Shown here in pieces: positions 6,985 through 29,028 of a stretch of 32,780 nucleotides of DNA; within the stretch, counting starts at the first letter, position 1, and every line of letters begins with the position of its first letter. The DNA is from a virus. Below the pieces are notes generated by a model. It was not told the DNA's origin. It worked only from the letters and a program-made list of their open reading frames with translations, and did not search any database. Location of the stretch: the UHGV virus genome UHGV-0305798. The stretch is one strand, 5' to 3'. The translations under genes and the position numbers were made by a program.

Positions 6985-7407
6985 TTAGAAGGTTATTTTA
7001 TCGAATGCGGCGTTGATTGCCTTGGCGTCCTGCTCAGCACCAACCACATCAAGTAAAGATCTTTTACTAAGCACTTCAGCCAGGCATTGTAACTTCATGT
7101 TGTATAAGTTTTCGCGCATGTAATCATCATCACTTTTTTCTTTGGCGTATACAGCGCGAGAAATATCAAACACATTGCCTTTTTCCATTTCAGTTTTCTG
7201 CGCTGAAATCCAGTCATGGCAAGTAACTCCTATTCCATGGTCATCGCTAAGCGTTAACCCGGCAAGTCGCTCACCTGGAATTGCTTCACAAAGCATTTCA
7301 TTTCCTGCAAAAACACCATAAAAAATTGAGTCATCACCCTGAACAATGCGTACATATTTGCACGGCCATTCATTTAGATATTTAGCTAGCATGTCGGCTG
7401 TTTTCAT
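6985..7407 (-). CDS. hypothetical protein (140 aa), reverse-strand insert between terminase and portal
   Basis: ATG at 7407 preceded by AAGGTGAG; clean ORF; looks AT-richer than flanking genes by eye; no family recognised. Confidence 0.6.
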   Translation of the reverse strand: MKTADMLAKYLNEWPCKYVRIVQGDDSIFYGVFAGNEMLCEAIPGERLAGLTLSDDHGIGVTCHDWISAQKTEMEKGNVFDISRAVYAKEKSDDDYMRENLYNMKLQCLAEVLSKRSLLDVVGAEQDAKAINAAFDKITF

Positions 7408-7424: not shown

Positions 7425-7448
7425 ATGCCCGGCGAACCGGGCTGTACT
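7425..7448 (-). terminator. rho-independent terminator (minus strand) between tRNA and the 140-aa gene
   Basis: Minus-strand reading GCCCGG-ttcg-CCGGGC followed by ATTTTTTT, immediately upstream of the gene's RBS. Confidence 0.4.
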
Positions 7449-7572
7449 GGTTTACAGCATGAAGTCATCGCAATGGCGTCCTGCTGTAAAAAGGGCGGTG
7501 ATAGTTCTTCAAGGGAAACCATCACCGCCAAGCCCCTGGAACTTCTGGCATCACGGTCCTTAGGCGTGATTC

Positions 7573-7649
7573 TGGCGTGGCATGCAGGATTCGAACCTGC
7601 GACCAACCGCTTAGAAGGCGGTTGCTCTGTCCGACTGAGCTAATGCCAC
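7573..7649 (-). tRNA. tRNA-Arg (anticodon UCU)
   Basis: Minus-strand sequence GTGGCATTAGCTCAGTCGGACAGAGCAACCGCCTTCTAAGCGGTTGGTCGCAGGTTCGAATCCTGCATGCCACGCCA folds as a cloverleaf: 7-bp acceptor stem, D arm, anticodon stem ACCGC/GCGGT with loop CTTCTAA, T loop TTCGAAT, encoded CCA end. Confidence 0.85.
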
Positions 7650-16976: not shown

Positions 16977-19723
16977 TGCCTGTTGTTCCTACTACATCCG
17001 GACGCCAGGTGCAAAGTCGTGGTGTGCAAACCGGTGGTTTTCAGACCTTCGATGTTCCTCAAGCAGGTCAGGTGCTGGCGAATGTCGCAGATCAGTATGC
17101 GGTGGCATATGGTGAAGCTAGGCAGAAAGCGAATGTTGCTATGGCCCAGGAGGCGTTACTGCAATTTAACCAATTTGCAGATGACCAGATTAACAACCCT
17201 GAAAATGGGCTGATTTCTAAACAGGGTAAAAACGCTCTTGGTCAGAGTGACGCTGTTATGAAAAATATGCAGGAAAGGGCTCAGGCATTATTAGGCTCAA
17301 TTCCTGAAAGTGAGGAAAGGAATAAATTATCCTTTCAACTCCAGCAGTCTATGCAGTCTTATTACAATCAGGCACGTCGATATGAAGTTGGGCAGTTTCA
17401 GCAATTCCAAGATCAAACGTATTTGTCAGGAAATGCATTGGCTGTCACTCAGTCTGCGGGGCTATATAGCGATAACCAAGCATTTGTCGATTTAGCCAAG
17501 CAGCGATTTGAATCTATTGATCAATACGCTGATGCGCATGGGCTTCCTGATGAGTGGCGTGTTCAGCAGAAAACTCAGCTCAAGGAACAAATGGGGCAGC
17601 AAGCATGGATAGGAAATATCGCTCAAAAATACAACGAGTTTCTTCAGGTTAATGGAGAGCCAGGGGATCTTGATGGTGTGAGTCGTGCAATATCACATGG
17701 TAATTCATTGGATGCTCGTGGTTTACGTAATAATAACCCTGGTAATATTGAAGCGAGCAAATCTAACCCGTGGGAAGGTCAGATCGGTAGTGATGGACGT
17801 TTTGCAACGTTTGCTACCCCTGAGCATGGAATCCGCGCGTTGGGTAAAAATATGTTGTCTTACCAGCGTCAAGGCTATGACACCGTTAGCGAGATTGTTA
17901 ATCGCTATGCTCCGGCTAGTGATGGTAATAATACTGATGCTTATATTAGGGCATTGTGTAGTGAGCTTGGTGTTGGGGAGAATGATCAGCTTGATATCTC
18001 TAACCCAAAGACACTAGCTGCTTTATGTGCTGGGATTATTAAACACGAAAATGGCAGTATGCCTTATAGCACCGAACAGCTTGAAACTGGTATCTCGGCA
18101 GCCCTTGGTCTAACTAACCTTGATTCACCTAAGCGTTATACGGGCAATGCGGCATTTGACGCTATGAGCCCTCAAATGCAAATACAGGCATTGAGGCAGG
18201 CTAATGAGCTGAGAAATCAGTACCGCCAGCAGTATGCGGACCAGCTTAGCACCGTAGTTAAAGATGCATATTCAGCCCTTGATGAAGGATTGAAACCTGA
18301 GAAGTTACCTTCTGAGGACGATTTTATCCGGGCCAATGGTCCGCGCATTGGCGCTATGAAGTGGAAGGATATGCAGGCGCAGATACAATATGGAGGTGTC
18401 ATTGGTGCCGCTAAAGACCTCACTCCAGAAGGACGACAAGACATTCTTGAACGTTTACGTCCACAGGATCCAAATGCTCCTGGATTTGCAGCTAACCAGC
18501 AACGCTGGGAGAAAATGCAGGCCAAATTTAAAGAGATGGATAGGGAGTGGGAGATTCAGCAGGGAAGAAACAGGTTCGTGTCTTCAATGCAAAATAACTT
18601 CCCGCTGGACCCTAACGACAAAAACAATCAGGCAGCGGTAGACCGTTATTTCGCGCAGGATATCGCGCCTTCGTTTTCCATATCTGATCCGCAGAGCATC
18701 AATACACTGGTCACCGTCACAACTAAAAGCGGCATGATACCAACTCAGGTTAAAACAATGCTTAACAGTGGAGCAACATCAAGAGATCCTGCGCTGGTTG
18801 TCCCGATGGCAAAATTCTACGGTCAGTTATTCGATAATAATCCGGCGGCAGCGGCAACACTTGATAAAAGTACGATGGCATTTTACGGCAAGGTTTACGA
18901 TTATTCCCGCGCTGGCGTGCCGGAGGATAAGGCTGTTGATATGGCTTACAGCCAGGTGTTCCAACAGGATGACCGAATGAAACAGATGCTTTCCACTGCC
19001 ATGCGAGACAAAAAATATGTCGCGGCGAGGGCAACTGCTGCACAAAATAACGCCAGCAGTCTGACTTCCTTTGGTTCGTGGTCTCCGGATATTACCGATC
19101 CAGGAAAATCAAATGCGGCCTATCAGCGAGATTACCAGACAATTTACGATGCTAACTTTGTACAGACAGGTGGCGATGCAGAACAGGCTGAGAAAATGAC
19201 CAATGCCATGATCAGAACCACCTGGGGAGTTTCTACAGTTAATGGCAAAGCAGAGGTTATGAAGTATGCACCTGAGGCATTGTACGGAGTAAATAATGGT
19301 GCTGGTAACTGGATACAGGGGCAGTGGGAGCAGGAAAAACGCGAGCTTAAATCAAAATCCTTTGGCGGTCCTCGCAGTGATACGGACTTAATACTTGTTT
19401 CTGATGGCCTTACGGCAAGGGATAGGAGTTATGCTGTTATGGTTTTACAGCCTGACGCAAACGGAGCGATAGAACCGAGAAATTATATTGGAGAAAATGG
19501 TCTCCCTGTTCGTTTCAAGCCGGATCAGCTGACATCTCCAATGTACAGGCAAACCATTCAGTTCCAGCAACAGCGTGTTGATGAGGCTAGAGTGCGGAGA
19601 GAAGGCAATCCGCTGCCGCAGTTCAGCAATAAAGATGGATATACTCCTCCAGATCTGACCAAACCATTCGGTTATGGTTCAGCCAATTACCTTCCGAGCA
19701 ATATATACGCAGGGGGCAAATAA
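16976..19723 (+). CDS. internal core protein C-like (gp15 position), 915 aa
   Basis: Large ORF in the gp15 slot with tight overlaps to neighbours; contains a distinctive block (RGLRNNNPGNIEASKSNPWEGQ...VNRYAP) that may be a catalytic or cell-wall-interacting domain. Confidence 0.6.
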   Translation: MPVVPTTSGRQVQSRGVQTGGFQTFDVPQAGQVLANVADQYAVAYGEARQKANVAMAQEALLQFNQFADDQINNPENGLISKQGKNALGQSDAVMKNMQERAQALLGSIPESEERNKLSFQLQQSMQSYYNQARRYEVGQFQQFQDQTYLSGNALAVTQSAGLYSDNQAFVDLAKQRFESIDQYADAHGLPDEWRVQQKTQLKEQMGQQAWIGNIAQKYNEFLQVNGEPGDLDGVSRAISHGNSLDARGLRNNNPGNIEASKSNPWEGQIGSDGRFATFATPEHGIRALGKNMLSYQRQGYDTVSEIVNRYAPASDGNNTDAYIRALCSELGVGENDQLDISNPKTLAALCAGIIKHENGSMPYSTEQLETGISAALGLTNLDSPKRYTGNAAFDAMSPQMQIQALRQANELRNQYRQQYADQLSTVVKDAYSALDEGLKPEKLPSEDDFIRANGPRIGAMKWKDMQAQIQYGGVIGAAKDLTPEGRQDILERLRPQDPNAPGFAANQQRWEKMQAKFKEMDREWEIQQGRNRFVSSMQNNFPLDPNDKNNQAAVDRYFAQDIAPSFSISDPQSINTLVTVTTKSGMIPTQVKTMLNSGATSRDPALVVPMAKFYGQLFDNNPAAAATLDKSTMAFYGKVYDYSRAGVPEDKAVDMAYSQVFQQDDRMKQMLSTAMRDKKYVAARATAAQNNASSLTSFGSWSPDITDPGKSNAAYQRDYQTIYDANFVQTGGDAEQAEKMTNAMIRTTWGVSTVNGKAEVMKYAPEALYGVNNGAGNWIQGQWEQEKRELKSKSFGGPRSDTDLILVSDGLTARDRSYAVMVLQPDANGAIEPRNYIGENGLPVRFKPDQLTSPMYRQTIQFQQQRVDEARVRREGNPLPQFSNKDGYTPPDLTKPFGYGSANYLPSNIYAGGK

Positions 19724-22700
19724 TGCCGATATATGAACAGGATCCTAAAGAGTTGCTTGGCGAGGATATTCAGCAAATAGCAGCACCTGATGACAGTAAT
19801 TTCTATATGGAAACACCTTCTTTGCTTTCTGCTGTGAACCCATTTACCAGTGAGCAACGCGTTCAAAGGTCTAGACAAGCAGCATTTCGTATAGATAACA
19901 CGCTGGGTAGCTTTATTGCCAGTGCTCCTTTCAGTCAGTTTGACAGGGTTGAAGGATATAACCCATTTGATAACGATGCAGCAGATATTAAAGGCTATGA
20001 AGATTTTGCAGATTCGTTTATCAACTCCGGTTCGCATGAAGAAACAATGGCAATTAAACATCGAATCGATAAGCAAAGAACAGATAGAGAATATCTATCT
20101 GAAATGGGTGGTGCTGGTACTATTTCAAGCTTAGCAATGGGAATGATAGACCCGGTTAATGTGGCTGCAATGTTCATCCCTGTAGGGGCGGTAGCGCGTG
20201 GAGGAAGTATTGCTGAGACGGCAGGGCGTTTTGCCCTGGCGAATGCTGCTGGTGGGGGAGTATCAGAAGCCGCATTACAGGCCACTCAGGAAGCTCGCTC
20301 ACCGATGGAGAGCGTATCGAACGTTGTTGTTGATGCTCTCGTTGGTGGGATCCTTGGTGCTGGTGCACAGCTACTTGCTGGACCTAGCGCGCGCGAGGCA
20401 GTGGTTAACTCAGTAGGTAATCATTTGCGAGGTATGGATTCTCCTCAAAGCATTGGTGCAGCTCAGGTTTTCAATACCACACTCGATCAGGAACAGCTCG
20501 CTGGACTTGGACTTGCTAACAAAACGTTGAGTGTCACTCCTGCTGGCCGCTTGGCGCAATCACCATCTCTTGTCTCCCGTCAGATTAACCAGCAGCTTGC
20601 CGAAAATAACTATTTCTTCGCCAAAAATGATGAGGGGTTGGCTACGTTTACGGCAGTCGAGACTAAGATTAAGCAATACGACGCCATGCTTTATAAGCAG
20701 ATGGAAGCTACTCGTGATGCTTACCAGCAGTACAGCAAATCTGTCAGCGCCCGCGGCGTGAAGAGGATGAACTTTATTGATTTCAATGAAGCTGTTGGCA
20801 TGGCTATGCGCCGTGGTGATCAGAGTGATATTCCTGAGGTTTCACAAGCAGCCGCCAGAATCCGCCCCATTTTTGAGACCACAAAAGCCCGTATGCAGGA
20901 ATTGGGGATCCTTCCTGAGGATATCGATGTCGTGACGGCGAAGAGTTATCTTCCCCGCATTTATAAGTTCGATAAGATACTTTCCGACCGCACTGAATTC
21001 AGAGGGCGAATTGCCAACTGGATACAAGGGATTAGTGCCAAAGGTGCTGACAAAGCAGGTCAGCGAATTGAAAAGATAAATTCATTGCTAAAAACTGCAG
21101 AGGAATCAGCACCGCGCGCTGATGCTCTCGCTAGTGAAATCGCTGAAGCGGAGAAATGGTCTGGTAAAAAAATTCTACTCATGGAAGAACTGGATAAACG
21201 AAATAAGCTTATATCTCAGGAGACTGACACACAGGCGCGTCTTACAAGAATAGAAAAAGAGTTGGCCGAGACTTCATCAGAAAAACTTCAGGCAAGAATG
21301 ATGAAAGAAAGCTCTGACCTTAAAACACGCCTTGATGATATAGCGCAGGCAAAGAGTGAGCTTCCTGTCTATCAGCGCCATATGGAGTTGCTGGATAATC
21401 CACGGAAATATCGTTCTGAGCTTCGCCGACTGCAAAAACGGGCAAATTCAACCACAAGGCTGAATGCAAGCCGCGAGCGAGCACTGAAGCAGATGGAGCC
21501 TCTATCCCGAGAGGAAGCAGAGGACGCTGCTGACGAGATCGTGAATAAAATAATAGGCGCACCTTCCGGGCTTGTACCAGCCGATATTATCCCAGAGAGA
21601 CTCGTTGGTCGGGCTGGTTTCACTAAAAGCAGAACGCTGCTTATTCCTGATGAGCGTATAGAAGATTTTCTTGAATCAGATGTTAACTACATCATGGAAA
21701 GTTATCTCCGGCAGGTGGCACCAGAAATTGAGCTGACTGCGCAGTTTGGCCGTAAAGATATGGGGGAGCAAATCCGTCAGGTTAGTGAGGAATATACCCG
21801 GCTAATAAAAGAGGCTAAAACACCTAAACGACGTGCAGTTCTTGAGAAGCAACGGGAGGCTGATATTAGGGATATTACGGCTATGCGTGATCGACTGCTT
21901 GGTACTTACGGTGCACCTCAAGATCCACGCAGTTTCTTTGTTCGTGCCGGGCGAGTTGCTAGGAATATTAACTTCCTCCGTTTGCTTGGTGGAATGACTG
22001 TCTCCGCTGCAACTGATCTGATGCGACCGATGATGCAGCATGGCCTGAGAAAATCTCTCGGACCAATGGTAAGCATGCTTAAAAATATGGACTCAGTAAA
22101 AATTGCAACCAGGGATTTGCGAGAAATGGCAGTTGGGCTTGATTATGTCCTGTCTACGCGTACAAAGGCTATAGCGGATCTTACTGACCCCTATAGCCGG
22201 AGAAGCGCCGCTGAGCGAGGTCTGAACTGGATGACGCAGAAATTCGGTAACTGGACGCTGATGAATCAGTGGAACAGCGCACTTAAATCATGGTCTGGGA
22301 TGATAGTGCAGTCGAGGATACTTGACGCGGCTCGCCAAGTTTCTGCTGGTGGCACGCTCTCCAAAAGTGAAATGCGGAAGATGGCACAGGTCGGCATCAA
22401 TGAAGATGTTCTGCGCCGAATCGGGGAGCAATTCGGGAAGCACGGAGAGGATATGGACGGGCTGTTAACCGGGCATAGTCATCTGTGGGATGACCGTTTC
22501 GCTAGAGAGATTTTCCAGTCTGCAGTGCTGAAAGATGTAGACTCAGTGATTGTAACGCCTGGCGTAGGTGATACACCGCTGTTTTTTAGTAAAGAAGGCT
22601 GGAAGATGATCACGCAGTTCAAAACGTTTATCTTCGCACAGCATAACAGGGTGCTGGTATCTGGTATCCAGCAGGGCGATGCTGCATTCTATCTTGGTGC

Positions 22701-23113: not shown

Positions 23114-23965
23114 ATGAAAAAAATAAATTTGTTTTTTGGCATAGTGCTTTCAATAGTCTCTGTAAATCCTACAGCTGCCAGTTCATTGCAATGCAATAAG
23201 GATAACTTTGATGCATGCAAAACGTGCGAACAATTATCAAAGGCTATCGACTTAAAAGAACCTAATCGTGGCGATTACTATAGAGGGGCTTTATGGAATG
23301 GGCTTTACGCCTCTTATGTAATTAATTGCCCTGTGGTTGCAGAGAAGTTACTGAGCCATGGTGCTATACCATCATATGGCGGATATATGGGGTCTATGGG
23401 GGCGGTTCTGACAGGAAAATGGCCTCATAACAATGAATCAATAAATCTTTCATGGGCAGATTTGCTTATAAAACATGGATTTGATGTTAATAGGCATACG
23501 GGGAATTATAAATCAGCTACTGAAGTATGGGCTATAGATAAAAAACAGATTGAATATAAGTCAGTTTTTGACAAGTTAATTCAATCCAGCGAAGTAAAAC
23601 CACTCGATCCTTCAAGAAATTTAGAATGGTGTGCGTCTGAAGGGTATCGCTCAGTTGTCGTTTATTCCCTTAACTCATGTATAGAAAATGCTATAAAACG
23701 TTTGGATGACGGTGTTTCTTCAGCGTCTGATATTTCATCAGCAGCCGTAAATTCCTGTACTAGCGATGTAGAAAATTTCAATAAGCATTTGGCATGCAAA
23801 GCAGCTGTTAAAGAAAACTCTGATAAAGAGAGAAGCAACGTTTACCAGTTATTAACCAGTGATAGTCAAATGAATAAAAATGTTATTGATATGCTGAAGG
23901 AAAGAAATATTGAAACGGTTCTTGAATTTAGAGCTGAAAATCGATCAGCGAAAACTGCACAGTGA
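23114..23965 (+). CDS. AT-rich secreted protein (283 aa), accessory gene
   Basis: Sec-type signal peptide (MKKINLFFGIVLSIVSVNPTAAS), several Cys, and visibly lower GC than flanking genes (by eye); followed by a strong terminator. Confidence 0.6.
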   Translation: MKKINLFFGIVLSIVSVNPTAASSLQCNKDNFDACKTCEQLSKAIDLKEPNRGDYYRGALWNGLYASYVINCPVVAEKLLSHGAIPSYGGYMGSMGAVLTGKWPHNNESINLSWADLLIKHGFDVNRHTGNYKSATEVWAIDKKQIEYKSVFDKLIQSSEVKPLDPSRNLEWCASEGYRSVVVYSLNSCIENAIKRLDDGVSSASDISSAAVNSCTSDVENFNKHLACKAAVKENSDKERSNVYQLLTSDSQMNKNVIDMLKERNIETVLEFRAENRSAKTAQ

Positions 23966-23971
23966 TCAAAC

Positions 23972-23997
23972 AGGCCGCTTTCGCGGCCTTGTTTTTA
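23972..23997 (+). terminator. rho-independent terminator after the secreted-protein gene
   Basis: GGCCGC-tttc-GCGGCC hairpin followed by TGTTTTT. Confidence 0.55.
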
Positions 23998-24156
23998 ACG
24001 AATGCCACCGCCGCCCGGACGGGAATCCGCAGAACGCCCACCGCAGCGGGAGCCGTCAGCGGCAGTATCGCTGTCGTGCTGACAACGACCGGCAAAGGCC
24101 TGAGTTGAAGCTACCAGAGACAACAAAACGAACAGTGCAGCAAATGCTTTTTTCAT
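23995..24156 (-). CDS. small secreted peptide (53 aa), putative
   Basis: Minus-strand ATG at 24156 gives MKKAFAALFVLLSLVASTQAFA (signal peptide) then a Gly/Arg/Asp-rich mature region with two Cys. Weak RBS; the longer ORF-track start looks spurious. Confidence 0.35.
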   Translation of the reverse strand: MKKAFAALFVLLSLVASTQAFAGRCQHDSDTAADGSRCGGRSADSRPGGGGIR

Positions 24157-24228
24157 TGTGAAATTTCCATCTATAAGCCACCTCAATGTGGCGTCAATGA
24201 GTGTAGCACTGACTTTTGTTTCGTCCAC

Positions 24229-24249
24229 AAAAAAGCCCGCGCTGCGGGC
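24229..24249 (-). terminator. rho-independent terminator (minus strand) after the 210-aa gene
   Basis: Minus-strand GCCCGC-agc-GCGGGC followed by TTTTTT, 5 bp past the stop codon. Confidence 0.5.
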
Positions 24250-24254
24250 TTCTA

Positions 24255-24887
24255 TTAATGCAGTTTATCTTTGCTTATAACCAGTAGTCTGTGGGTATGC
24301 ACATCTTTATCACTGCCCCAACAGAAATCAGCCCACTGGCTATAGAAATCATCCCATGATGTCATGAAGCTAAGAGGTCTATCTTCTTCAGAGCCATCTG
24401 AAACGTATACATTATATCCTGGGGTGTTTATAGCCCAAGAAATCATTCTTTCCCAGAATCTTCTCCCATCGATTGTTTGTTGCTCATCAGATACAACGAT
24501 CGCATATTGCTCTAGGAAGAACTGAAAAAAAATCTGAGGCAAACCATGAACAGCACGGTCATGAATAACATTAGGCGTACGCCATACCATGATCTGCGTA
24601 CATGTTCTTTTGGCTTCGACGATATCTTCCCGAAAGATTAACTTAACCGCATACACCGTTTCTGGAGTATCGCTGGTAGTAATCATTCTGTAATGATCGC
24701 CATTACAAGATTTTACAAGGCGATAACCATAAGGTGTTGTGAATCCCGGAAGAACGAAATCAACCACACCTTTCGCTAAGTAGCTTTCGGTGTGACTAGT
24801 GTTCTTCTCAGACATGTTCAGTTTTCTATCGAAATCTGCTTCTGGGATAATGTATGGCATCGCTTTTCTTGTTGTATTTGTTCTCAT
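24255..24887 (-). CDS. hypothetical protein (210 aa), reverse-strand accessory gene
   Basis: ATG at 24887 preceded by GGGAGG at 5 nt; own terminator downstream and palindromic site upstream; AT-rich by eye; no family recognised. Confidence 0.6.
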   Translation of the reverse strand: MRTNTTRKAMPYIIPEADFDRKLNMSEKNTSHTESYLAKGVVDFVLPGFTTPYGYRLVKSCNGDHYRMITTSDTPETVYAVKLIFREDIVEAKRTCTQIMVWRTPNVIHDRAVHGLPQIFFQFFLEQYAIVVSDEQQTIDGRRFWERMISWAINTPGYNVYVSDGSEEDRPLSFMTSWDDFYSQWADFCWGSDKDVHTHRLLVISKDKLH

Positions 24888-25033: not shown

Positions 25034-25726
25034 TCAGAAGAACCCTGCCTTGTCGTTGATGTACTCCGCGTGGGTCTGGATATCACGCAGGCATTTGCTC
25101 ACACCAACGATGTAGCAGAACATGGTGGTCAGCTCCGCCGCCGCGCCCGATACGTCGTGCCCGTCTTCCTGTAACTGGTTCAGCAGATTCATCAGCAGTG
25201 AGTTCTCCGTCAGGCCGAGAACACCAGACGGAGAATGAATCAGGCTGCGGTAGCCGGGCTTCAGCGGGGCGCTGTAGGTTTTGTTCTCTATCTTCATTGC
25301 CTGCATCACTGCTGATGCTGTGGCGTTTGCAACCTGGTCGGCAACCATCTTTATGCGTTCTTCCTGCGGGAGCGAGTTTTTAATGTAACTTCCGGTGCGG
25401 CGGATCTGAGGAAGAACCTCACCTGTAACCCATTCAAGAAATCTGAATGCTCTCGTTCCCTCAGTCATTGCCTCTTTGCAACGCAGAATAAGGATGTAGA
25501 GACCTGATTCTGAAACGATGGATAGTTCTTGTATTCCACCAGGGGTCTGTATTGAATACAGCCCCTTTTTGTTCCAGCCTTTTTTATCAAGTTTTCTCGC
25601 TTGTGTAACATCAATATTCAAAGCATTGCACACATCTTTGGTGACAAACCAAGGTTCTCCGTCAATCATGAACATACGGATCTGGCAGGATGACTCAAAG
25701 GAAAAGATGGAAGGTTTGGTATTCAT
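25034..25726 (-). CDS. Bro-N domain antirepressor-like protein
   Basis: N-terminus (MNTKPSIFSFESSCQIRMFMIDGEPWFVTKDVCNALNI) matches the BRO-N signature of phage antirepressors; start at 25726 after AAAGGTGA (the ORF-track start 25771 adds 15 aa). C-terminal 70 aa are paralogous to the small gene at 26040..26297. Confidence 0.75.
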   Translation of the reverse strand: MNTKPSIFSFESSCQIRMFMIDGEPWFVTKDVCNALNIDVTQARKLDKKGWNKKGLYSIQTPGGIQELSIVSESGLYILILRCKEAMTEGTRAFRFLEWVTGEVLPQIRRTGSYIKNSLPQEERIKMVADQVANATASAVMQAMKIENKTYSAPLKPGYRSLIHSPSGVLGLTENSLLMNLLNQLQEDGHDVSGAAAELTTMFCYIVGVSKCLRDIQTHAEYINDKAGFF

Positions 25727-25880
25727 GGCGATCACCTTTGTAGTTAGGTTAATCACCACCGCTGAGACCAATCAGATGGTGGTGAACTGTGCAGAGTTGG
25801 TCTTACCGGCTACAAAGGAACCCGGCGCACCTTTCGGTGCCCCCACACAGCCCACCATAGAATAGGTGCGCTTTACACAT

Positions 25881-25906
25881 AAAAAAACCGCTTATGCGGC
25901 ATATGT
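25881..25906 (-). terminator. possible terminator (minus strand) downstream of the small LexA-box gene
   Basis: Minus-strand GCCGC-ataa-GCGGU followed by seven U; short stem, so moderate. Confidence 0.35.
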
Positions 25907-25993
25907 GCCTCTGTAGTAATCCGGGAGACCAATCCCGGCACTGGATTTTGCCAGTGCCCGATTACTATGGCACAAGAGGAGTGCGATGTAAAT

Positions 25994-26008
25994 TTACCGC
26001 AAAGGTAA
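25994..26008. promoter_or_regulatory. palindromic site TTACC-GCAAA-GGTAA (copy D)
   Basis: Read directly; extended palindrome ATTTACC-GCAAA-GGTAAAT; lies between the antirepressor and the small paralogous gene. Confidence 0.4.
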
Positions 26009-26039
26009 ATATAAGCACTCCATTTGGTAATTGCAAACC

Positions 26040-26297
26040 TTATCTGGTTTGTTTTCGTAATTGTTCGGCACAATAGTCGAGATGTGTTTGCAGATCCTGC
26101 ATAGACATCTGTGAGCTGGTGACGTAGTTAATCAGTGCAGTCAGTTCGGCAAGTGGGCCATCGACATTAAATCCATCCTTATCGAGATCCCGGAGTAATT
26201 TCATCAAGTGCGATCCCTCCACCAGTGACCTGACGCCTCCCGGCGTGTGAATCCTTTCGGTAAATCCGTCTTCCAGTGGATAGTGATACTGCTGCAT
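26040..26297 (-). CDS. small antirepressor-like protein (Tum-like, about 85 aa)
   Basis: About 40% identical by eye to the C-terminal domain of the adjacent antirepressor (shared IH-P-GV, AELT, DxQTHxxY motifs). ATG at 26297 has GGAG at 9 nt; alternative ATG at 26312. A LexA box lies immediately upstream. Confidence 0.6.
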   Translation of the reverse strand: MQQYHYPLEDGFTERIHTPGGVRSLVEGSHLMKLLRDLDKDGFNVDGPLAELTALINYVTSSQMSMQDLQTHLDYCAEQLRKQTR

Positions 26298-26317
26298 CTT
26301 AATCTTCTCCATGCAAT

Positions 26318-26337
26318 AACTGTATATTTATACAGTA
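26318..26337. promoter_or_regulatory. LexA (SOS) box
   Basis: AACTGTATATTTATACAGTA matches the CTGT-N8-ACAG consensus (TACTGTATATATATACAGTA) at 18 of 20 positions; sits just upstream of the small antirepressor-like gene. Confidence 0.7.
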
Positions 26338-26374
26338 TCAAATAATTTGTTTGCTATCCAGCACGTTTTGAAAA

Positions 26375-26389
26375 TTACCTGAAAGGTAA
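26375..26389. promoter_or_regulatory. palindromic site TTACC-TGAAA-GGTAA (copy E)
   Basis: Read directly; about 105 bp upstream of the tailspike ATG and about 40 bp beyond the LexA box; 17-mer identical to copy B. Confidence 0.4.
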
Positions 26390-26493
26390 TATCTATTCAT
26401 ATTCACAGTCTTTCTATCCATATATGGTTTTTTGGGTAATAGAATAACCAGATATGCGGCGCAACGGGTGCTGCGACTATCTGGAGATTTAAC

Positions 26494-28956
26494 ATGACGG
26501 TCTCAACCGAAGTTGACCACAACGAATACACAGGTAACGGCGTTACGACATCATTTCCGTATACCTTCCGTATTTTCAAAAAATCCGACCTGGTTGTTCA
26601 GGTGTCTGACCTTAACGGTAACGTTACAAAACTAGTGCTGGATGCTGGTTATACGGTAACAGGGGCGGGAACTTATAGTGGCGGTGCAGTGGTTCTTCCG
26701 TCGCCGCTTGCTGCTGGCTGGCGAATCACGATAGAGCGTGTGCTTGATGTGGTGCAGGAGACTGATCTTCGCAATCAGGGAAAATTTTTCCCCGAAGTTC
26801 ATGAGGATGCATTTGACTACCTGACGATGCTGATCCAGCGATGTTTTGGGTGGTTCAGACGTGCATTGATGAAACCATCTTTGCTTGCAAAATATTACGA
26901 TGCAAAGCAAAACAGAATATCTAACCTTGCAGATCCATCATTTGAGCAGGACGCTGTAAATAATCGCTCAATGCGCAATTATGTCGATGCTGCAATCGCC
27001 GGGGTTGTTGGTGGTTTTGGTTGGTTTATTCAGTATGGTTCTGGAGCGGTATACAGAACACTCCAAGATAAGATGCGTGATGGTGTCAGCATTAAGGATT
27101 TTGGAGCTCAAAATGGAATCTTAAATGATAACAAGGAGTCTTTTACAAAATCATCACATTCGTTTAGCAGTGTTTTTGTTCCGGAAGGGGTATTCAATAC
27201 ATCTTTAGTTTCTCTTTCACGTTGTGGCTTGTACGGAACAGGTGGGGGAACGATAAAACAGTATGACAGAGATGGTAATCATCTGGTTTTTAACATGCCC
27301 GATGGTGGCATGCTTAGTACGCTAACAATTATGGGAAATAAATCAGATGATAGTGTGCAGGGACACCAGGTGTCATTTTCAGGTGGCCATGATGTATCGG
27401 TTAAAAATATCAGATTTACAAATACGCGAGGACCAGGATTTAGCTTGATCGCTTATCCGAATAATGGTATTCCGTCAGGTTACATTGTTAGAGATATAAG
27501 AGGAGAGTATTTAGGGTTCGCAAATAATAAAAAAGCAGGTTGTGTGCTTTTTGATTCATCGCAAAACACGCTAATTGATGGTGTGATAGCCAGAAATTAT
27601 CCTCAGTTTGGTGCAGTGGAACTTAAAACAGCAGCAAAATATAACATTGTCAGCAATGTTATTGGTGAAGAGTGTCAGCACGTTGTTTACAATGGAACTG
27701 AGACGGAAACTGCCCCAACGAATAATATCATTAGCAGTGTAATGGCTAACAACCCAAAATACGCCGCAGTAGTTGTTGGCAAGGGGACTGGTAACCTGAT
27801 TTCGGATGTGCTGGTTGATTACTCTGAATCGGACGCAACGCAGGCGCACGGCGTCACCGTTCAGGGAAATAATAATATTGCCAGTAATATTCTAATGACT
27901 GGGTGTGACGGGAAAAATGAATCAGGAGATCTGCAGAAATCTACAACCATTCGTTTCTTAAATGCTGCAGGCAGTAATTATGCGTCAATATTCCCCATGT
28001 ATAGTTCTTCTGGCGTGGTTACCTTCGAGGAAGGGTGTATCAGGAACTTTGTTGAAATTAAACATCCGGGTGATAGAAATAATATTCTGAGTTCTGCATC
28101 AGCGGTGACTGGTATTTCCAGTATAGACGGCACTACAAATAGCAATGTTGTTCACGTCCCTGCGCTTGGTCAGTACATTGGGACTATGTCAGGGCGTTTT
28201 GAATGGTGGGTTAAATATTTTAACCTTGCTAACCAGACGCTTGTTTCTGCAGATAAATTCAGAATGCTTGCTGAAGGAGATGTATCTCTGGCTGTGGGAG
28301 GCGGTATAAGGTCGCAATTGAAATTATTCAATAGTGATAATACTAAAGGCACTATGTCGCTAATAAATGGAAATATTCGAATATCTACTGGAAATTCAGA
28401 ATATATACAGTTTTCTGATTCAGCCATGACACCATCGACAACGAATACTTATTCTCTTGGGTTGGCTGGTCGTGCATGGTCGGGGGGATTTACCCAGTCA
28501 GCGTTTACGGTGCTGTCCGATGCGCGTTTCAAGACTGCTCCAGAGGTTATTGATGAGAAAATACTGGACGCATGGGAAAGAGTGGAATGGGTTTCATACC
28601 AGTACCTTGACAGGATCGAAGTGAAAGGTAAAGACGGAGCAAGATGGCACTTTGGTGCAGTTGCGCAGCATGTTATCAGTGTATTTCAGAATGAAGGCAT
28701 AGATGTGTCACGACTGGCATTTATCTGTTATGACAAGTGGAATGAGACCCCGGCAGAATACAGGGATGTGACGGAAGAAGAGCATTCTGCAGGAGTTTAC
28801 CCACTTATACAGACAAAGGTTCTGGTACGCGAAGCCGTCGAGGCTGGTGAATGTTACGGTATCCGTTATGAAGAGGCTCTGATTCTGGAATCTGCGATGA
28901 TGAGACGCAGGGTTAAAAAGCTGGAAGAGCAAGTTTTGCAATTAACAGGGAATTGA
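26494..28956 (+). CDS. tailspike/tail fiber with T7 gp17-like N-terminal domain and C-terminal intramolecular chaperone domain
   Basis: N-terminal 110 aa follow the T7 gp17 particle-binding pattern. Central region is Gly/Asn/Thr-rich with repetitive beta-strand-like segments, consistent with a beta-helix. C-terminal block (SDARFKTAPEVIDEKILDAWERVEWVSYQY...WHFGAVAQHV...EALILESAMMRR) matches the self-cleaving chaperone domain (peptidase S74-like) of endosialidase-type tailspikes. Confidence 0.85.
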   Translation: MTVSTEVDHNEYTGNGVTTSFPYTFRIFKKSDLVVQVSDLNGNVTKLVLDAGYTVTGAGTYSGGAVVLPSPLAAGWRITIERVLDVVQETDLRNQGKFFPEVHEDAFDYLTMLIQRCFGWFRRALMKPSLLAKYYDAKQNRISNLADPSFEQDAVNNRSMRNYVDAAIAGVVGGFGWFIQYGSGAVYRTLQDKMRDGVSIKDFGAQNGILNDNKESFTKSSHSFSSVFVPEGVFNTSLVSLSRCGLYGTGGGTIKQYDRDGNHLVFNMPDGGMLSTLTIMGNKSDDSVQGHQVSFSGGHDVSVKNIRFTNTRGPGFSLIAYPNNGIPSGYIVRDIRGEYLGFANNKKAGCVLFDSSQNTLIDGVIARNYPQFGAVELKTAAKYNIVSNVIGEECQHVVYNGTETETAPTNNIISSVMANNPKYAAVVVGKGTGNLISDVLVDYSESDATQAHGVTVQGNNNIASNILMTGCDGKNESGDLQKSTTIRFLNAAGSNYASIFPMYSSSGVVTFEEGCIRNFVEIKHPGDRNNILSSASAVTGISSIDGTTNSNVVHVPALGQYIGTMSGRFEWWVKYFNLANQTLVSADKFRMLAEGDVSLAVGGGIRSQLKLFNSDNTKGTMSLINGNIRISTGNSEYIQFSDSAMTPSTTNTYSLGLAGRAWSGGFTQSAFTVLSDARFKTAPEVIDEKILDAWERVEWVSYQYLDRIEVKGKDGARWHFGAVAQHVISVFQNEGIDVSRLAFICYDKWNETPAEYRDVTEEEHSAGVYPLIQTKVLVREAVEAGECYGIRYEEALILESAMMRRRVKKLEEQVLQLTGN

Positions 28957-29028
28957 ACCGTAAATGGTGTGTTGTTGCGCGGTATACTTTTCCTGAAGCA
29001 GGGTGTTTGCAAATAAACGGGTTTCGTT

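Follow-up and report, generated by a model that had tools for sequence, protein, structure and literature searches.

The DNA stretch analysed here, referred to below as the window, is the 32,780-nucleotide (nt) virus genome UHGV-0305798. It is an epsilon15/phiV10-like (Uetakevirus-type) prophage of Escherichia coli, and yfgI adjoins the right end of the prophage. Two minus-strand genes of the window encode proteins with a common domain. The small antirepressor gene ant (26040-26297; 85 amino acids plus stop) encodes a free-standing Ant-type domain and is the orthologue of the ant gene of Salmonella phage SPC32H. The other gene (25034-25726; 230 amino acids plus stop) encodes a fusion antirepressor, Bro-N::Ant, in which a Bro-N domain (residues 16-106; 25409-25681, minus strand; Pfam PF02498) precedes an Ant-type C-terminal domain homologous to the small Ant (residues 145-230; 25037-25294, minus strand; detected by BLASTP, phmmer, hhalign and phrog_450). 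Between the two genes, on the same strand, lie full-length matches to two Rfam RNAs, IsrK and C4. We consider it probable that these elements form two antirepressor modules built on one helical domain of about 80 residues, namely an SOS-controlled small Ant and a C4/IsrK-controlled Bro-N::Ant, both directed at the same Rep-type repressor. The Bro-N::Ant protein starts with MNTKP, and the Prokaryotic Genome Annotation Pipeline gives the same 693-nt gene in relatives. For ant, an alternative start (ATG at 26312), which would yield a 90-residue reading, falls within a conserved GGAG Shine-Dalgarno sequence; the 85-residue start agrees with SPC32H Ant, the solved protein.

A first-pass annotation of the window had aligned the two proteins by eye. 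In BLASTP, residues 145-222 of the Bro-N::Ant protein aligned without gaps to residues 3-80 of the small protein (numbering of the 90-residue reading), with 33 of 78 positions identical (42%; E = 5e-21). Comparison of a profile of 10 small proteins with one of 20 full-length fusions by hhalign gave a probability of 99.7% (E = 3e-25) over 79 columns. The small protein is thus a free-standing homologue of the Bro-N protein C-terminal domain, as had been proposed, but the shared stretch is about 80 residues long rather than the 70 given earlier. The motifs that had been named, IH(T/S)P(G/S)GV, AELT and D(L/I)QTH..Y, are present and occupy columns that are invariant or nearly invariant in both subfamilies. 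An alignment of 16 sequences from both lineages contains 15 invariant columns. The residues invariant in both lineages are spread over the whole domain, and the C-terminal helix is the part that has diverged most between the two lineages.

Structure prediction gave the same picture. AlphaFold2 models of both proteins show one four-helix pattern with a constant offset of +147 residues: the helices span residues 12-15, 19-27, 30-40 and 46-84 in the small protein (predicted local distance difference test score, pLDDT, 90) and residues 159-163, 166-172, 177-187 and 193-229 in the Bro-N::Ant C-terminus (pLDDT 82-93). The final helix is about 40 residues long in both models. Both proteins matched the families phrog_450 and phrog_1760, with E-values against phrog_450 of 3e-48 for the small protein and 3e-37 for residues 147-228 of the Bro-N protein. 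Both were also aligned by phmmer to chain E of PDB entry 5D50 (5D50_E, “Anti-repressor protein”): residues 7-89 of the small protein (90-residue reading) to chain residues 3-85 with E = 4e-47, and residues 149-225 of the Bro-N protein with E = 9e-14. A search of both Pfam and NCBIfam found no family model for the Ant-type domain. The two segments are short and helical, and structure searches did not retrieve the solved Ant structure, as might be expected if the similarity were a chance or compositional resemblance of two helical segments. Such a match is refuted by the ungapped BLASTP alignment (E = 5e-21) and the hhalign result (E = 3e-25). The independent matches of both proteins to 5D50_E and phrog_450, and the 15 invariant columns over 16 sequences of both lineages, also speak against it, and we regard this explanation as almost certainly wrong.

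By tblastn, the small protein is 88% identical to Ant of SPC32H. Its gene occupies the same genomic slot as SPC32H ant, between the structural genes and the tailspike gene, from which it diverges. An exact CTGT-N8-ACAG LexA box, CTGTATAAATATACAG, lies at 26320-26335, 23 nt upstream of the ant start codon, and its position is kept in eight of nine relatives, SPC32H included. This perfect and conserved box agrees with the earlier proposal that the small copy is under LexA control, and we predict such control from it. The same pattern was not found between 25726 and 26040, i.e. there is no LexA box of this form for the Bro-N gene. Elsewhere in the window, a second exact CTGT-N8-ACAG box, CTGTACTGGTTTACAG (7442-7457), lies 35-50 nt upstream of a minus-strand gene (6985-7407), beside a tRNA gene; the product of the minus-strand gene is a Gp49-family protein in relatives. 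A single extra box such as CTGTACTGGTTTACAG is close to the chance expectation for this window.

The Ant/Rep system of SPC32H was reportedly described by Kim and Ryu in 2013 and by Kim et al. in 2016, with PDB entries 5D50 and 5D4Z. For LexA-dependent antirepression, one later paper refers to Kim and Ryu 2013 (PMC7380047). According to another, SPC32H Ant forms a tetramer, which binds two Rep dimers and breaks the DNA-binding Rep tetramer (PMC9638917). The window shares with this system the small-protein orthologue (88% identity), the LexA box position, the genome location and, in its relatives, a homologous Rep. The Bro-N C-terminal domain falls within the same family (E = 9e-14 against chain E). 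In contrast, SPC32H carries ant alone, without isrK, C4 or a Bro-N gene. The first-pass annotation had also called the small protein Tum-like, a label that does not hold as a statement of descent. Tum of phage 186 is unrelated: hhalign of Tum against the domain alignment gave a probability of 0.2%, BLASTP gave E = 0.06, and a Pfam scan gave no DinI match. As no Tum homology is detectable, the label can express only an analogy of regulation and role. Tum is likewise a small LexA-repressed protein that inactivates the phage repressor by binding, but it has no sequence relationship to the small Ant, and its DinI-like half is absent here.

In the fusion protein, the Bro-N profile PF02498 scored 51.4 bits (gathering threshold 25.6) over residues 16-106, covering profile positions 2-96 of 96. 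The protein as a whole matches phrog_130, “anti-repressor Ant” (E = 3.5e-51). Pfam gave nothing beyond Bro-N and a sub-threshold P22_AR_N match, and no KilA-C/ANT (PF03374) domain. An identical protein (P0141) is annotated as “BRO-like protein”, and the identical protein is widespread and labelled only “BRO-like” or “BRO-N domain-containing”. The authors of the phiV10 genome labelled the fused gene of that phage “putative anti-immunity protein”. Bro-N proteins are well known for domain shuffling, and Bro-N/KilA-N regulators with shuffled C-terminal domains were reportedly described by Iyer, Koonin and Aravind in 2002. The fusion resembles these modular regulators, in which an exchangeable C-terminal domain follows a head of the Bro-N, AntA, Rha, ORF6N or P22_AR_N type. 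Its own C-terminal domain, however, is of the SPC32H Ant type, not KilA-C/ANT (PF03374) or Bro-C.

The two copies had been proposed to be under different regulation. This stands for the LexA control of the small copy, whereas the RNA control predicted here for the Bro-N copy had been overlooked. All elements of the interval between the genes lie on the minus strand. The IsrK-type small RNA (25881-25957) matches Rfam RF01394 over its full length with 74.7 bits (gathering threshold 50), and the C4-type antisense RNA (25775-25862) matches RF01695 over its full length with 78.6 bits (gathering threshold 45). A sigma-70-like promoter candidate (25964-25992; TTTACA-17-CATAGT with an extended TG, a consensus match only) is positioned for the isrK 5′ end, with its -10 element ending 7 nt before the Rfam isrK match at 25957. 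A terminator hairpin of IsrK was predicted at 25887-25900. The 3′ end of C4 lies 49 nt before the Bro-N start codon.

The leader of the Bro-N gene (25735-25771, exact complementarity) and IsrK each contain two sites complementary to two elements of C4. The first element, a′ (AGACCAA, 25797-25803), has its 7-nt complement UUGGUCU both in the leader (a2, 25765-25771) and in a loop of IsrK (a1, 25926-25932). The second, b′, is the loop of the second C4 hairpin (CCUUUGUAG, 25810-25818) and is the exact 9-nt complement of leader site b2 (CUACAAAGG, 25735-25743), which runs across the Bro-N Shine-Dalgarno sequence AAAGGUG and lies 8 nt before the ATG. The corresponding IsrK site b1 (CUACAGAGG, 25908-25916) is complementary to the same C4 loop with one G-U pair. 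Eight related phages show three variants of each element (AGACCAA, ACGCCAA and GTCTCAA for the first; CCTTTGTAG, CCTTTTAG and CCACTTAG for the second). In every one of these phages, the change is matched in IsrK, C4 and the leader. E. coli phages with Rep proteins of about 99% identity show four combinations of a and b. The isrK-C4 cassette was found in 237 phage records. The sole open reading frame (ORF) inside C4 has 28 codons, and its frame is shifted by single-base C4-loop insertions or deletions in relatives. No conserved icd-like leader ORF coupled to the Bro-N gene was found; b2 covers the gene's own Shine-Dalgarno sequence.

This arrangement resembles two known loci. The first is immI of phages P1 and P7 (c4 antisense RNA - icd - ant), reportedly described by Citron and Schuster in 1990. 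P1 and P7 share a repressor and differ in immI specificity. The shared features are a C4 RNA just upstream of the antirepressor gene, a′ and b′ elements complementary to an upstream and a downstream site of which the latter lies over the ribosome-binding site, and specificity variants among phages with a common repressor. Unlike in immI, the protein consists of Bro-N and an Ant-type domain and is not P1 Ant1/2, a conserved icd-like ORF is lacking, and the upstream a1/b1 sites reside in a separately terminated IsrK RNA. The second locus is isrK - orf45 - anrP of prophage Gifsy-1, which is said to have been described by Hershko-Shalev et al. in 2016; the Gifsy-1 antirepressor GfoA is said to have been described by Lemire et al. 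in 2011. Gifsy-1 also combines, in one prophage, a LexA-controlled small antirepressor with an IsrK-riboregulated larger antirepressor-like protein, and shows readthrough of the isrK terminator into the downstream gene and a stable C4-like RNA downstream of IsrK. Its two genes, however, are about 2.6 kilobases (kb) apart rather than adjacent. AnrP (STM2616) gave an hhalign probability of 12% against the fusion-family alignment, with the C-terminal domain unmatched, and resembles by eye the ORF6N head of the fusion P0307. The same isrK-C4 pair has been reported ahead of the antirepressor-like anrP in Gifsy-1, where IsrK unlocks AnrP translation (PMC4825925), and ahead of a Bro-N gene in APSE phages (PMC7313666).

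Word-indexed protein searches with either domain alone returned close relatives only, and an exhaustive profile search was needed for the other fusions. Among 1.84 billion representative proteins, this search gave just 65 clusters at E ≤ 0.001. The domain family is therefore narrow, and the Ant-type domain is a mainly enterobacterial module. Free-standing members have 82-95 residues, and the domain also occurs C-terminal to Bro-N, AntA, Phage_pRha and ORF6N heads. In an AntA fusion (P0262), the final 81 residues are the same as those of the window fusion. A third copy in phage TL-2011b (31060-32244) carries a P22_AR_N head and lies downstream of a gene for an Arc-like repressor; over its last 101 residues, TL-2011b gp42 is 84% identical to the Ant-type domain of the window. 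In HEMP4, too, the domain is present in a third copy (1603-1968). Four free-standing 95-residue proteins of a Bro-C-type lineage (P0263, P0265, P0127 and P0129) start with MPAILEAMK, which corresponds to an internal fusion segment. They may be remnants of split fusions or internal-start products, not independent small genes.

A survey of relatives, which the first-pass annotation had suggested, revealed both fused and free arrangements. Among sequenced phages, 34 records carry the domain: 19 with at least two copies, among them E. coli phiV10-like phages, TL-2011b, Tyrion and Klebsiella phages, and 15 with the small Ant alone, including SPC32H, SPN1S and epsilon15. When one genome per species was surveyed, isrK-C4-Bro-N::Ant lay directly downstream of the small ant in six of nine enterobacterial species loci (Citrobacter, Erwinia, Superficieibacter, Scandinavium, Kluyvera and Klebsiella), and a Nitrosomonas locus carried the fused form without the small copy. 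Both lineages are co-inherited in at least eight genera. Mean identity is 71% among the small copies, 61% among the fused domains and 39% between the lineages, and the pairwise divergences of the two lineages are correlated (r = 0.79). The earlier idea of a duplicated effector domain thus holds as regards a homologous pair but not as regards a recent local duplication, the lineages being separate in each of the genomes examined. Their split is old, and both copies have been maintained; the picture fits a cassette added beside ant rather than a recent local duplication. Extra DNA of about 0.8-1.1 kb lies between the small ant and isrK in EC.W1-9 (28067-28982), TL-2011b (34153-35241) and E. coli FDAARGOS_1301. 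The insert separates the two modules; in EC.W1-9 it consists of two plus-strand genes.

The attachment of the domain to five different heads of the Bro-N/KilA-N kind is what might be seen for a generic assembly module. The shared domain in the fusions might thus serve mainly for oligomerisation, with the activity residing in the head, for example through binding of DNA or of another host or phage factor. The terminal helix of about 40 residues in both models is in line with this, as is the tetrameric state of SPC32H Ant (PMC9638917). In SPC32H, however, the free-standing domain alone is a complete antirepressor. Modular antirepressors elsewhere keep the C-terminal part and swap the head; for example, Ant of Phi24B and Ant of P22 are 82% identical over the last 104 residues and 37% identical overall (PMC3064807). 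The narrowness of the family, found in whole phage genomes encoding Rep-type repressors, also suggests a specific partner. We regard a mainly assembling role as unlikely. The small and large proteins might also form mixed oligomers in which one modulates the other, for example by titration or activation of Bro-N::Ant, in view of the homologous domain with its long C-terminal helix, the oligomeric nature of Ant and the adjacency of the genes. Against this, divergence between the lineages is greatest in the C-terminal helix, inserted genes separate the pair in EC.W1-9 and TL-2011b, and many phages carry just one of the two proteins. Modulation of this kind appears very unlikely.

In the two-module arrangement that we favour, DNA damage would lead to production of the small Ant from its LexA-repressed promoter, and the small Ant would inactivate the non-cleavable phage repressor by direct binding. 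The second module would be a separate cassette, isrK - C4 - Bro-N::Ant. C4 would pair with the two leader sites, one of which is the ribosome-binding site, and thereby block translation of Bro-N::Ant. IsrK, which carries decoy copies of both sites, would relieve the block. The logic would be that of P1/P7 immI and of Gifsy-1 isrK-anrP. We infer that the small Ant and the C-terminal domain of the Bro-N protein have the same Rep-type repressor as binding partner. If so, one effector would be served by two inputs: an SOS input for induction, and an RNA-specified immunity input for infection, superinfection and competition with relatives.

In close relatives of the window prophage, a Rep is encoded whose homology to SPC32H Rep spans the full length (E = 4e-42). 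A Rep homologue is encoded in five close E. coli relatives, in Tyrion and in Kp4865-1. Rep is about 99% identical among the five E. coli phages, and between the E. coli-type Rep and SPC32H Rep, identity is about 43% (38% for the C-terminal domain). Several observations weigh against the favoured arrangement or limit it. First, the repressor gene of the window prophage falls outside the window, the complete E. coli genomes do not include this exact genome, and the early region is mosaic; Rep was examined in close relatives instead. Second, the small Ant is 86-88% identical among E. coli-type phages, Tyrion and SPC32H while their Reps are only 43-46% identical. The sequence of Ant is therefore a poor guide to the Rep that it binds. 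Third, identity between the fused domain and the small Ant is only about 40%, and the target specificity of the former is therefore not readable from sequence. Fourth, a phage can be viable without the fused gene, which is frameshifted in phiV10 and absent from SPC32H and epsilon15. The phiV10 gene (19551-20230) is interrupted inside the Ant-type domain and annotated as a 194-residue protein and a 29-residue ORF, and it is either a pseudogene or the result of a sequencing error. Fifth, the solved Ant chain 5D50_E was not recovered by structure searches. Finally, GfoA of Gifsy-1 was considered as a free copy of the AnrP C-terminal domain, which would have made Gifsy-1 a parallel case; the two are not detectably related to each other, nor is either to the Ant-type domain. 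GfoA was identified here solely by its position after a dinI homologue. As a separate observation, conservation is far stronger in the antirepressor than in Rep, its presumed target.

Bro-N::Ant may instead target the repressors of other resident or incoming phages, in a form of anti-immunity or cross-talk, with the diverged domain recognising a different partner. The two lineages are about 39% identical and distinct in all genomes examined. The antirepressors of the Gifsy prophages and Fels-1 act on non-cognate repressors (PMC3121763). The label “putative anti-immunity protein” chosen by the phiV10 authors points in the same direction, as does the dispensability of the fused gene, frameshifted in phiV10 and absent from SPC32H. 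On the other side, the fused gene accompanies the small ant and Rep-type repressors in at least eight genera with parallel divergence, diversification of C4 specificity among phages of one Rep fits competition over a shared target, and residues invariant in both lineages extend along the whole domain. We regard a foreign target as possible but rather unlikely, and a common Rep target remains the explanation that we prefer.

The two modules may also be coupled. No terminator was predicted between the ant stop codon and isrK in the window. The a1/b1 decoys would therefore be part of SOS transcripts that start at the ant promoter. On such transcripts, a1 and b1 would titrate C4 and unlock translation of Bro-N::Ant, which would amount to a feed-forward commitment to induction. 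This SOS-IsrK coupling cannot be general, because genes are inserted at this place in EC.W1-9 and TL-2011b. Taken together, a scheme in which one repressor-binding domain is used two or three times per phage with different sensors, the modules perhaps being coupled and mixed oligomers being a further possibility, is put forward as a tentative and rather unlikely extension.

The minus-strand region downstream of the Bro-N gene (23995-24887) is a variable cargo slot. In the window, it holds a 210-residue protein (phrog_1349, unknown function) and a 77-residue membrane protein of a moron family. Pfam gave no match for the downstream ORFs at 24255-24887, 23995-24228 and 23114-23965. Their PHROGs matches were to families of unknown function, with the 77-residue ORF assigned to a “membrane associated protein” moron family. 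The same slot holds a YafO-family toxin in TL-2011b (32319-33272) and other small genes in EC.W1-9 (25753-26809). A tRNA-Arg gene with anticodon TCT (7573-7649, minus strand) lies between the terminase and portal genes, likewise in SPC32H and other relatives. The tailspike gene (26494-28956, plus strand) has a conserved epsilon15-type N-terminus. The receptor-binding parts differ among close relatives (endosialidase, GH28-related, “eliminase”), which is the usual host-range mosaicism.

Each of the two modules is of a known kind, one corresponding to the SPC32H Ant system and the other to the riboregulated antirepressors of the P1 immI and Gifsy-1 IsrK type. What is new is the recognition of the domain of the solved Ant as a recurrent C-terminal module that lacks a family model, and the finding that this module is present in many enterobacterial prophages as two or three copies under different control. 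A domain family with free and fused members is thereby provided for SPC32H Ant, whose structure has been solved. With it, hundreds of prophage proteins of E. coli, Salmonella, Klebsiella, Citrobacter and Enterobacter that are now called “BRO-N domain-containing” or “hypothetical” could be annotated as probable Rep-directed antirepressors. From the covarying C4 specificity classes among phages with one and the same repressor, testable heteroimmunity groups are predicted. These prophages would also offer a tractable natural system in which one non-cleavable repressor faces two or three antirepressors with a common effector domain and with SOS, antisense RNA and Arc as inputs. Such a system may be useful for understanding how temperate phages combine induction and immunity signals.

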